A stretch of DNA of 64,000 nucleotides from Octopus vulgaris (Eukaryota), in contig OX597834.1 of NCBI GenBank assembly GCA_951406725.2, positions 40,114,001 through 40,178,000 on the forward strand. Direction: 5' to 3'. The notes beneath the pieces were generated by a model. It was not told where the DNA came from, ran no database searches, and saw only the letters and a program-made list of their open reading frames with translations. Within the stretch, counting starts at the first letter, position 1; each line of letters begins with the position of its first letter. A program made the translations under genes and the position numbers. Below, piece after piece: positions 4,755-59,619 of this stretch.

Positions 4755-4788
<34 letters not shown>

Positions 4789-4914
4789 GTAAATGCAATA
4801 TGTGATAATTATATATATATATAGACACATACATATATGCTTGTGTGTGTATGTACATATATATATATGTATATGTGAATGCACACAAACATATATATAT
4901 ATATACATACACAC

Positions 4915-7021: not shown

Positions 7022-7336
7022 GTCACTGTGACCACCGTGACCGACCAGGCTATCAGATGTTGCTACACATCGCTGGTCACAATGCGCTTTGCATTGTTTT
7101 AGCATTCAAATGATGCCACCCCACTGGCTAAGCGAGCAGGCCAACAGAAGAAAGAGTGAGAGAAAGTTGTGGCGAAAGAGTACAGCAGGGATCGCCACCA
7201 TCCCCTGCCGGAGCCTCGTGGAGCTTTAGACGTGTTTTCGCTCAATAAACACTCACAGCGCCCGGTCTGGGAATCGAAACCGCAATTCTAAAACCGCGAG
7301 TCCGCTGCCCTAACCACTGGGCCATTGCGCCTCCAC
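7022..7336 (-). mobile_element. tRNA-headed SINE, family D
   Basis: Minus strand GTGGAGGCGCAATGGCCCAGTGGTTAGGGCAGCGGACTCGCGG...GGTTTCGATTCCC. Relatives at 8451-8580(+) and 9990-10257(-). Confidence 0.8.
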
Positions 7337-11960: not shown

Positions 11961-12378
11961 AGGCGAGCTGGCAGAAACGTTAGCACGCCGGGCGAAATGC
12001 TTAGCGGTGTTTCGTCTGTTGCTACGTTCTGAGTTCAAATTCCGCCAAGGTCGACTTTGCCTTTCATCCTTTCGGGGTCGATAAATTAAGTACCAGTTAC
12101 GCACTGGTGTCGATGTAATCAACTTAATTTGTTTGTCTGTCCTTGTTTGTCCCCTCTGTGTTTAGCCCCTTGTGGGTAGTAAAGAAATAAGTATTTCATC
12201 GGCCGCTACGTTCTGAGTTCAAATTCCGCCGAGGTCAACTTTGCCTTTCATCCTTTCGGGGTTGATTAAATAGGTACCAGTTACGCACTGGAGTTGATAT
12301 AATCGACTTAATCCCTTTGTCTGTCCTTGTTTGTCCTCTCTGTGTTTAGCCCCTTGTGGCTAGTAAAGAAATAGGTAT
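11961..12378 (+). mobile_element. tRNA-headed SINE, family B (Nin/Deu-like central domain), with tandemly duplicated 3' module
   Basis: GGCGAGCTGGCAGAAACGTTAGC...GAGTTCAAATTCCGCC.AGGTCGACTTTGCCTTTCATCCTTTCGGGGTCGATAAATTAAGTACCAG resembles the Nin/Deu SINE domain. The module from TATTTC..GCTACGTTCTGAG to AAAGAAATAG is present twice. Nested inside a family A SINE. Confidence 0.85.
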
Positions 12379-12421
12379 TTGGTAAACAGAGACTGTGTGG
12401 AAGCCACACACACATACATAT

Positions 12422-39049: not shown

Positions 39050-39083
<34 letters not shown>

Positions 39084-39142
39084 TGGTAAAAACGGTAAGA
39101 TAACAAAAGAAAGAAAGAGACCTCAATATTATGTAAATAGAG

Positions 39143-39196
<54 letters not shown>

Positions 39197-40024: not shown

Positions 40025-40758
40025 TAGTGGTTCCCAAATCTTTCCAGGGTGCCACACCCTTGGTGCCCTGGCAACATTCCTAGCTCTACACCCTTCCTAC
40101 TCACCACCACAAACACAGACCGTTTTCTGCAGCAAATTAAAAAAAAACAATATTTCACAAATAAAACTTAACCTAACTAACTTGTTATTTTGTTGTTTTT
40201 CACATCCATTAACCCCCTTTTGGTCATCCCACTATCTATTTCTTTACTACCTGCATGGGGCTAAACACAGAGAGGACAAACAAGGACAGACAAACGGATT
40301 AAGTCGATTACATCGACCCCAGTGCGCAACTGGTACTTAATTTATCGACCCCGAAAGGATGAAAGGCAAAGTCGACCTCAGCGGAATTTTAACTCAGAAC
40401 GTAATGGCCAACAAAATACCTATTTCTTTACTACCCACAAGGGGCTAAACACAGAGAGGACAAACAAGGACAGACAAACAGATTAAGTCAATTACATCAA
40501 CCCCAGTGCGTAACAGGTACTTAATTTATCGACCCCGAAAGGATGAAAGGCAAAGGCGACCTCGGTGGAATTTGAACTCAGAACGTAACAGCAGACAAAA
40601 TACAGCTACGCATTTCGCCCGGCGTGCTAACATTTCTGCCACCACGCTGCCTTTTGGTCATCCCATTATCACACCACTCTTCTTCAATGCCCACCGTTTT
40701 CATGGACCTTTGCACCACCACCACCAGGGGGCAGTACTGTCTACTTTGGGAAGCACTG
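40025..40758. mobile_element. hAT (Charlie-like) MITE with a nested dimeric SINE B
   Basis: Ends TAGTGGTTCCCAAA / TTTGGGAAGCACTG; flanks ATTTAACA / GTTTAACC (6/8 match, possible TSD). SINE B dimer at 40237-40649(-) is flanked by the 21-bp duplication CCTTTTGGTCATCCCA(C/T)TATC. Confidence 0.7.
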
Positions 40759-48143: not shown

Positions 48144-48460
48144 TTCTTTTATTTTTGCCTAAGGTGCCATGTAGTGGGACTGAACTAGGAACCATGTGGT
48201 TGGTAAGCAAGCTACACCTATATATATATATGTGTGTGTGTGTGTATGTATGTTGGCCAGCTTGCACAGCCAGCTGGGTGCCGTCATTTGAAGGCTAAAA
48301 CAATGCGAAGTGCATCGTCACCAGCGGTGTAGCAACATCAATTAAATAATGAACTGAATTTATATATATTGATAGATATGGTAAGACAACAAAAGAATGA
48401 AAGAGACCTCGATATTATGTAAAATAGAGGAATTTATCTGTAAATGTAATATGTGATAAT

Positions 48461-48548
48461 TTTTCGATAGCCATGATAAAACTCTGAGTTTCGGATGTCG
48501 GGGCAGAAACCCACTCCGGCATCTCTTCCATTATCCGGCCATCGAAAA
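48461..48548 (-). ncRNA. Type I hammerhead ribozyme-like fold (degenerate core) in a short Penelope-like element (~48370-48575)
   Basis: Minus strand TTTTCGATGGCCG-GATAA [TGGAAGA] GATGCCGG-a-GTGG-gttt-CTGC-c-CCGACATC-c [GAAA] CT-cag-AG [TT] TTATC-a-TGGCTATCGAAAA. Stems I, II and III all pair; the core differs from CUGANGA at two positions. Confidence 0.65.
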
Positions 48549-48651
48549 GCCATTCAATGATTCCATCTGACTCATGCAAGCACAGAAAAGAGGACATTAC
48601 AAAGAACAGGATGATGATGATGACGACGAAAAAGATGGTGTTTACTTGTGC

Positions 48652-58733: not shown

Positions 58734-59619
58734 TGTGTGTGTTTGTTTGTGTGTGTGTGTGTTTGTGTATGTGTGCAGAAATATGAGTGTGTTGCTGTTT
58801 CTTTGTTTTTACATCACATGGTGGTTGTAAACAAGAGTCACCATCATACAAGCAGTGTCGTTTGTTTCCAGTCTGCTGGAAAAACATGTCTGGCCACGGG
58901 GAGATGTCACCTTGTTTCAAAGCAGATGAGGGTTGGCAACAGGGAGAGCATCCAGCCGTAGGAAAATCTGCCTTGATAGACTCCATCCGACCCATGCAAG
59001 CAGAGAAAAGTGAACATTAAGACAATGATGATGATGATTATGATGATGAATAACAGATTCAATACCAAGAAATGTTCCATGCCAATGATGGACAACTGAA
59101 CTGGACCATTGACCACAAATATATTCGGTTCAGAACTTACTAGTGTCATTATATCATATTCTAACTCTGAGTAACTTTCCTGGTTTTATTTTTCCTTACA
59201 TAAACAGTACCACTCACCACCACTACCACCACAACCACCATCATCATCATCATCATCATCAACCCCACACTTCACGGTTCAATGATTAGCAGTAACAAAA
59301 GCAGCCAACTGTAAAAACAATTGCTGCAACATATTAACAATGGAAGAAATATCTTAATTATGCAAGCAGAGAAAACTCCTTTATCTTGCTTTAAATTTCA
59401 AGCAGGCCGCATATATACATTCACACACACATATTCACACACATAAATATGTGTGTGTTTGTGAGATGCCAGGTGCAATAACCGTATATAAGTAGAAAGA
59501 TGAATGATAATAAGCGTAAGGAAACTATTTGTATTAAAAGCTGCGTATACAATCACATGATGTAAATAAGTCTTATCTTTACAGCTGTTTCGAATAATCA
59601 ATGACTACTTGGTATAATA

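Follow-up and report, generated by a model that had tools for sequence, protein, structure and literature searches.

A probable hammerhead relic from the end of a Hydra-clade Penelope-like element in Octopus vulgaris

A short segment on the minus strand of a 64,000-nucleotide stretch of the Octopus vulgaris genome (the window) is, with a probability of about 0.9, the 5′-truncated end of an autonomous Penelope-like element (PLE) of the Hydra clade. The helices that it forms on paper are those of the terminal hammerhead of this element, a ribozyme that is predicted to cut as a dimer and is likely dead in the window copy. The family to which the copy belongs supports the original prediction that the hammerhead is of type I, derives from a Penelope-like element and has a palindromic stem III.

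The hammerhead fold of the window copy

Three helices had been proposed on the minus strand at 48461–48548, and all are present there. Stem I consists of 5 bp (48535–48531 with 48479–48475), a one-base bulge at 48474 and then 13 bp; stem II has 11 pairs within 48523–48493; stem III is a near-palindrome at 48489–48481, and the GUU site ends at 48480. These coordinates locate the ribozyme correctly, but the element itself extends on to 48367. The features are as follows.

48367–48548, minus strand: probable 5′-truncated 182-bp 3′ end (pseudo-LTR, hammerhead plus tail) of a Hydra-clade PLE, of a subfamily between A1 and A2
48536–48548, minus strand: outer extension of stem I, 5′ strand; 5′ truncation point at ∼48548
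48531–48535, minus strand: 5′ strand of the inner 5 bp of stem I, paired in 100% of cells and showing one A-U/G-U/G-C series
48524–48530, minus strand: core strand C3–A9; UGGAAGA here versus CUGAAGA in the family, C3 (48530) and U4 (48529) being changed
48493–48523, minus strand: stem II, long and interrupted, 31 nt between the core strands, with closing pair G10.1–C11.1
48489–48492, minus strand: core strand GAAA (G12–A15.1), from sequence and family alignment
48481–48489, minus strand: palindrome of stem III, centred on 1 nt and predicted to pair only between two molecules or two tandem copies
Between 48480 and 48479, minus strand: predicted cleavage site 3′ of GUU, from hammerhead numbering
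48461–48479, minus strand: stem I 3′ strand, with the inner 5 nt, the bulged A at 48474 and the outer extension
48367–48434, minus strand: optional tail, bounded by the two 3′ ends that the family favours (∼+45 and ∼+112 relative to the cut); the window copy has the long end
48360–48366, no strand: short (TA)n run at the insertion site, from sequence
39069–39157, minus strand: tail-only fragment of young subfamily B between (TA)n runs, 94.6% identical over 93 bp to a B unit
4778–4812, minus strand: 35 bp of sequence from 3′ of the cut site, embedded in a (TA)n tract and without ribozyme core

A 101-nt segment of the window folds with z = −3.53, and none of 200 shuffles is equally stable; the minus strand reaches −34.3 kcal/mol, as against −29.2 kcal/mol for the plus strand. 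In the minimum-energy fold of the monomer, stem III is not formed and stem II is shifted. The 13-bp outer part of stem I exceeds the family norm, partly by way of private changes. An Rfam scan of 48300–48640 gave no hammerhead match at E ≤ 10, and in a scan of the whole window there was no hammerhead among the best 150 of 295 matches, which were microsatellite-driven or low-scoring.

An intact core is absent from the window copy, which carries UGGAAGA at 48530–48524. The suspicion that this copy is probably dead is supported by its relatives: the 29 nearest that were fetched comprise 23 with CUGAAGA, 6 with a single change and none with UGGAAGA, and the window copy is the only one of 154 with a G at core position 4. 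A second supposed lesion, an ‘extra C’ before GAAA, is no lesion at all: each of the two columns that precede GAAA holds a nucleotide in 89 of 89 aligned copies, and the additional nucleotide is therefore a family trait. In the window it appears as one unpaired C beside the G10.1–C11.1 closing pair of stem II (48494 or 48493).

The pairing probability of stem III in the monomer is at most 0.17 in all seven copies that were folded, and the self-duplex of the 9-nt palindrome is computed at −7.4 to −9.7 kcal/mol. As modelled, a stem III that is weak in the monomer and stable in the duplex fits the dimer model of PLE hammerheads, for which dimer cleavage, slow in vitro, is described in the parts of PMC4209133 available.

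The window element is 90% identical over 182 bp to the pseudo-LTR (pLTR) upstream of the open reading frame (ORF) in locus L073, and the same unit also lies downstream of the ORF in loci L062 and L066. The expected association with (TA)n holds for the family at large, 185 of 226 copies having a microsatellite next to their 3′ end. Related fragments had been pointed out at ∼39085–39146 and 4785–4810; both are real, but they hold only sequence 3′ of the cut site and no ribozyme core.

Other repeats are also present in the window. The end of one, finishing in (GAT)n, is seen at 48559–48626 and 58979–59049 and abuts the 5′ truncation point of the element. Two copies of another dispersed repeat, 83% identical over 82 bp, lie on opposite strands at 48260–48339 and 7056–7137. 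A SINE-like unit of 184 bp forms two head-to-tail dimers, at 12021–12380 and 40236–40603, the units of each dimer being ∼90% alike.

A large family with a conserved core

The genome measures 2.8 Gb. A query with 48360–48600 returned 2,808 first-look candidates, of which 40 were scored; among these, the copies other than the window's own are 90–93% identical over a stretch that ends near 48360. Exact matches of a 23-nt pattern over the 3′ core put the family at no fewer than 8,010 copies (control, 0). Sorting of 225 distinct copies assigned 48 to subfamily Z, 27 to A0b, 33 to A1, 34 to A2, 22 to A3 and 60 to B, with 1 unplaced. As anticipated, the relatives carry the core that the window copy has lost, CUGANGA/GAAA/GUU. 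The full type I hammerhead core (CUGANGA, GAAA, A15.1–U16.1 and H17) is found in 142 of 164 non-B copies, a share that is inflated because many copies were selected by core-containing patterns. Depending on the subfamily, position N7 is U, C or A, and U, G or A stands at the centre of stem III, while the flanking bases are fixed. Copies of subfamily Z (L222, L106:1554–1653 and others) combine CUGAUGA with an inner stem I of 6 bp and a stem II whose base is an unbroken run of 8 bp, and theirs is probably the best-folding ribozyme of the family.

The stems were also expected to covary, and across the six subfamilies stems I and II do show compensatory changes. The covariation set holds 45 rows (42 distinct): the window copy and 44 others, selected mostly for lying nearest the majority of their subfamily. 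Helix positions are paired in 95.5% of cells, against 33–60% in slid controls, and two-sided changes number 31 cells, compared with 9.3 in shuffles, none of 500 shuffles reaching 31. There are five covarying pairs, a number matched by 37 of 500 shuffles. The clear pair in stem I is A-U 11 times, G-U 3 times and G-C 28 times; that in stem II is C-G 14, U-G 12 and U-A 16 times. Stem III has no two-sided change in this set. Judged from the alignment, the covariation comes down to two clear events, both passed on within one lineage, and the rows are the authors' choice. A midpoint-rooted tree of 43 copies over 88 columns, with mostly weak support, arranges A1, A2, A3 and B as a ladder with A0b and Z on the opposite side, and the window copy falls between A1 and A2.

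The parent element and its clade

Two loci were found to carry a fragment resembling reverse transcriptase (RT) beside the ribozyme unit; following this fragment gave 570 candidates, of which 40 were scored. In the older A form the ribozyme unit lies ∼930 bp upstream of the RT-like fragment and again ∼2,150–2,320 bp downstream, in the same orientation. RT and nuclease sequence is fragmented at all 15 A-type ORF loci fetched. An intact ORF was found in the sister subfamily B, which is ∼80% identical to A in DNA and occurs as head-to-tail 2.58-kb units, each with a ribozyme; two of those in L175 have an unbroken ORF of 708 aa. The parent, encoding RT and a GIY-YIG nuclease, is an autonomous element.

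One B array, L175–L176 (G000:C1:57207500–57224500), consists of near-identical 2.58-kb units, contains both unbroken 708-aa ORFs and has ribozymes on both strands, at least four on one and two on the opposite one. It is a recently mobile Hydra-clade element. A 288-aa frame just downstream of another Hydra copy (L066:5027–5890) resembles an AP-endonuclease of a LINE.

The 708-aa protein has RWK at residue 37, DKT at 114 and YKDD at 346. The nuclease follows residue 557, with CxCx5C at 557, CxxC at 660 and CxH at 691; there is no Cys between 571 and 650 and no CCHH. A C-terminal GIY-YIG domain, RWK, DKT instead of DKG, a CxCx5C linker, CxxC and CxH flanking the conserved E and N, and the lack of CCHH are the Hydra-clade marks given in the accessible text of PMC8557442. 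Membership of this clade is assigned here by such diagnostic motifs. The B unit measures 2.58 kb versus ∼3.1 kb for the older A form, Hydra elements being defined as short (<3 kb). A Pfam search with the 708-aa ORF returned no RT match, and its GIY-YIG match stayed below threshold (E 0.014), so the RT call relies on motifs and on likeness to published Hydra proteins; Pfam searches with partial ORFs and a PDB sequence search returned nothing useful. PLE traits are likewise found: pseudo-LTRs from tandem or partial-tandem insertion, inverted 5′-truncated copies and an optional tail.

The Naiad clade was weighed because insertion is into (TA)n and the core spacer is long. With an N-terminal nuclease, a CxC domain and DKA taken as its marks, it is ruled out by the C-terminal nuclease and the DKT.

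Of 7997 candidates scored against the ORF at L175:1631–3754 (minus strand), at least 1,005 are unnamed homologues with E ≤ 1e-20, and the best 120 are 41–52% identical, mostly on 2–3-kb contigs. The Hydra clade thus appears far larger than the 27 families tabulated in the accessible part of PMC8557442. No paper on the present family was found in the openly accessible literature.

Ends of copies and a proposed life cycle

The ends of 226 copies (100 A, 71 Z/A0b and 55 B), identified through motifs 3′ of the cut site, were surveyed; they were drawn from the first places listed, 30 of each group as loci and the rest fetched. Four copies start within 2 nt of the predicted cut site, 1 starts further 3′ and 221 read through. 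A pile-up of 5′ ends at the site was thus not found among these copies and, with only 4 of 226 starting so close to it, the genome bears no footprint of cleavage. The 5′ ends are instead frequent in a 33-nt zone from −55 to −87 (93 of 226), where 67 of the 93 join an inverted copy of the element; in this count both arms of one insertion may be included. The window copy is a non-inverted truncation with a long tail and has its 5′ end within this common zone. Contigs from three sequencing runs cover the B ribozyme and its flanks and those from a fourth hold more diverged relatives, all of them contigs that carry no RNA-end or strand information.

Taken together, 5′ ends and inversion joints form a second cluster (19 of 219 at risk) where the stem III palindrome lies, −6 to −15 relative to the cut site, which suggests template switching at this palindrome.

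The 3′ ends fall into two classes, about 40–45 and 107–112 nt downstream of the cut site; in subfamily B, 28 of 55 lie at +31 to +40 and 26 of 55 at +107. Two classes of 3′ ends together with read-through match the picture drawn in the available portion of Frangieh et al. 2024 (PMC11167929). The tail region (+25 to +110 of the L175 unit) differs between old and young subfamilies at 5 of 84 sites, the ribozyme at 16 of 86, and the tail may hold a protein-binding or priming signal.

A life cycle can be proposed from these ends. A read-through transcript of the head-to-tail units that are observed would carry two or more ribozymes, and base-pairing between the palindromic stem III halves of two of them might then permit slow cleavage after GUU, at a point ∼210 nt ahead of the start codon. 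The GIY-YIG nuclease would cut one strand of (TA)n DNA, and reverse transcription would begin at either of two internal sites, ∼40–45 or 107–112 nt past the cut site, priming being modelled on Frangieh et al. 2024. Since 221 of 226 copies read through the cut site, RT would mostly do the same and its usual template would be uncut or re-joined RNA. The observed ends show that RT often comes to a stop or inverts a little beyond the 5′ foot of the ribozyme, giving the abundant 100–200-bp copies, among them the window copy, which would have lost C3 and U4 after insertion.

Subfamily B and the need for cleavage

In subfamily B, CUGA is replaced by CCGA: CCGANGA is read in 57 of 60 copies and CUGANGA in none. 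Position 11.1 is U in 53 of 60, giving G10.1–U11.1, and stem II contains two U-U mismatches. The cost of adopting the hammerhead fold is 11.6 kcal/mol for B versus 7.1 for A1–A3. B is also the youngest subfamily, as the arms of its inverted insertions are the least diverged (1.8%, 33 pairs, as against 9.7% for A, 24 pairs, and 6.6% for Z, 9 pairs); arm divergence separates only B from the rest, and age by distance to a subfamily's own majority is too noisy for ordering A and Z. A 16-nt core pattern has 4,316 exact matches in the B form and 3,283 in the CUGAAGA form (controls, 1 and 1), figures that are not copy numbers because youth favours exact matches. By this count of exact core matches B is the most numerous branch, and it is the youngest, ORF-intact and tandem one.

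The U4C change, which is predicted to weaken cutting in B, came first, as intermediates carry it on an otherwise A3-like helix. Along the ladder, decay would have proceeded from U4C to the U-U mismatches of stem II, the C11.1-to-U change and the loss of outer stem I pairs. That the series A1-A2-A3-B records a Penelope element losing its ribozyme while thriving is a tentative proposal, whose chances fall somewhat short of even. In the openly accessible literature, no report of hammerhead decay across PLE subfamilies was found.

In a rival explanation the fold persists in this lineage for its structure, as a signal at which the protein of the element binds, pauses or switches template, and cleavage is no longer needed. 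The read-through of 221 of 226 copies speaks for it, as do the clustering of inversion joints at the stem I foot and the stem III palindrome, the weakened B core with its higher fold cost, and the anole PLE, in which, according to the accessible text of PMC11167929, hammerhead mutants are without effect on insertion in vitro. The CUGA-type lineages, however, show a fixed core beside a variable N7 and a variable stem III centre, as expected under catalytic constraint. U4C, moreover, is a natural variant with lower activity in vitro and reportedly sufficient activity in vivo, as stated in the part of PMC3088659 available. B retains all other core bases, stem III and the inner part of stem I, several of its changes being of the CpG type, and A and B differ at 16 of 86 sites in the ribozyme region, below the 68 of 187 seen at four-fold sites. 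Retention for structure only is accordingly rather unlikely, if still a serious candidate, and a terminal hammerhead that is predicted to cut as a dimer continues to be the preferred reading.

The role of hammerheads in PLEs is said to be unclear in the accessible text of PMC8557442. Were B to have ceased cleaving while A and Z still cleave, this would be evidence from within the genome that Penelope transposition can dispense with hammerhead cleavage or is even held back by it. The octopus genome offers six related subfamilies with natural compensatory pairs, a better-paired stem II in Z, a weakened core in B and intact tandem ORFs, and every intermediate of the decay series exists in it as a natural sequence. 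Because these coexist, the need for a PLE hammerhead can be tested with natural sequences. Similar motifs may escape searches, as the long bulged stem II falls outside a core-spacer descriptor of 7–17 nt, as quoted in the literature available.

Origin of the short copies

The unit had originally been taken for non-autonomous and retrozyme-like; in a rival explanation of this sort, a separate retrozyme of ∼185 nt spreads as its own small or circular RNA by means of Penelope enzymes. Short copies are indeed very common, the end of the window copy lies in the zone that holds 93 of 226 5′ ends, and retrozymes have been proposed, in the sources available, to derive from PLE terminal repeats. Yet 67 of these 93 ends are joints to an inverted copy of the element, and the ends are spread rather than fixed. 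Neither do the copies form tandem arrays of short non-coding units: the 187 cores in loci of at least 3 kb yield seven same-strand neighbour pairs, one at 263 bp, the only one below 1 kb, one at 1.2 kb and five at 2.6–3.4 kb, and the tandem units that exist measure 2.58 kb and are coding. An ORF for RT and GIY-YIG is flanked by the unit on both sides, and the subfamily letters are common to short and ORF-linked copies. An independent retrozyme is therefore very improbable.

A chance hairpin in a repeat, devoid of ribozyme ancestry, would agree with the missing Rfam match and the absence of CUGANGA from the window copy, but its likelihood is negligible, as it is refuted by the family alignment, in which thousands of copies, located as the hammerheads of Hydra elements are, have core, cut-site triplet and three helices intact, and compensatory changes occur.

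Comparison with known systems

As far as sequence allows a judgement, the ribozyme is of a described kind and the element family is distinct from Hydra-1_Obim. With the Hydra-clade PLEs of Craig et al. 2021, as presented in the accessible text of PMC8557442, the element shares the C-terminal GIY-YIG domain, RWK, DKT, CxCx5C, CxxC/CxH and the (TA)n target. Like the present one, the hammerheads in File S2 of that article lie on the sense strand near the 3′ end, have U at the cut site and form a stem III whose palindrome is centred on 1 nt. Hydra-1_Obim (File S1) is the closest relative and has the start of the core and stem II in common with A1–A3; it differs in its protein, 27 of the first 43 residues being identical in a comparison by eye. 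A short motif of the present ribozyme was not found in the text of the PMC8557442 supplement. Stem II, with 31 nt between the cores and two internal loops, is longer than in any Hydra row of the File S2 text available, and the CCGA of the youngest subfamily is seen in none of these rows. Unlike them, the present family also has the unpaired C beside G10.1–C11.1, full pLTRs and tandem arrays.

The metazoan PLE hammerheads described in the available portion of Cervera and de la Pena 2014 (PMC4209133) are likewise of type I, lie in pLTRs and have a long helix II and a small palindromic helix III; most of their copies are lone and truncated, and inverted pairs lie 100–700 bp apart. In those ribozymes the spare nucleotide sits in the A9/G10.1 gap, whereas in the present family it is on the 3′ side of stem II, and the long bulged extension of stem I also sets the latter apart.

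Non-LTR retrozymes, as far as covered by the accessible text of Cervera and de la Pena 2020 (PMC7229834) and Li et al. (bioRxiv 10.64898/2026.07.22.740005), share a short non-coding unit, a type I hammerhead and a relationship to PLEs. They are tandem 150–450-bp units without ORF, whereas the present unit is the end of an ORF-bearing element and has variable 5′ ends.

Poseidon PAc of Anolis, in the part of Frangieh et al. 2024 (PMC11167929) available, shares two internal RT start sites and an optional tail. A further likeness is that its uncleaved RNA is the main template and no RNA ends are reported at the cut site. Poseidon PAc belongs to another clade and has a tail of 30–40 bp, as against ∼67 bp in the present family, and its cut site lies inside the ORF, whereas that of the octopus element lies ∼210 nt upstream of the start codon.
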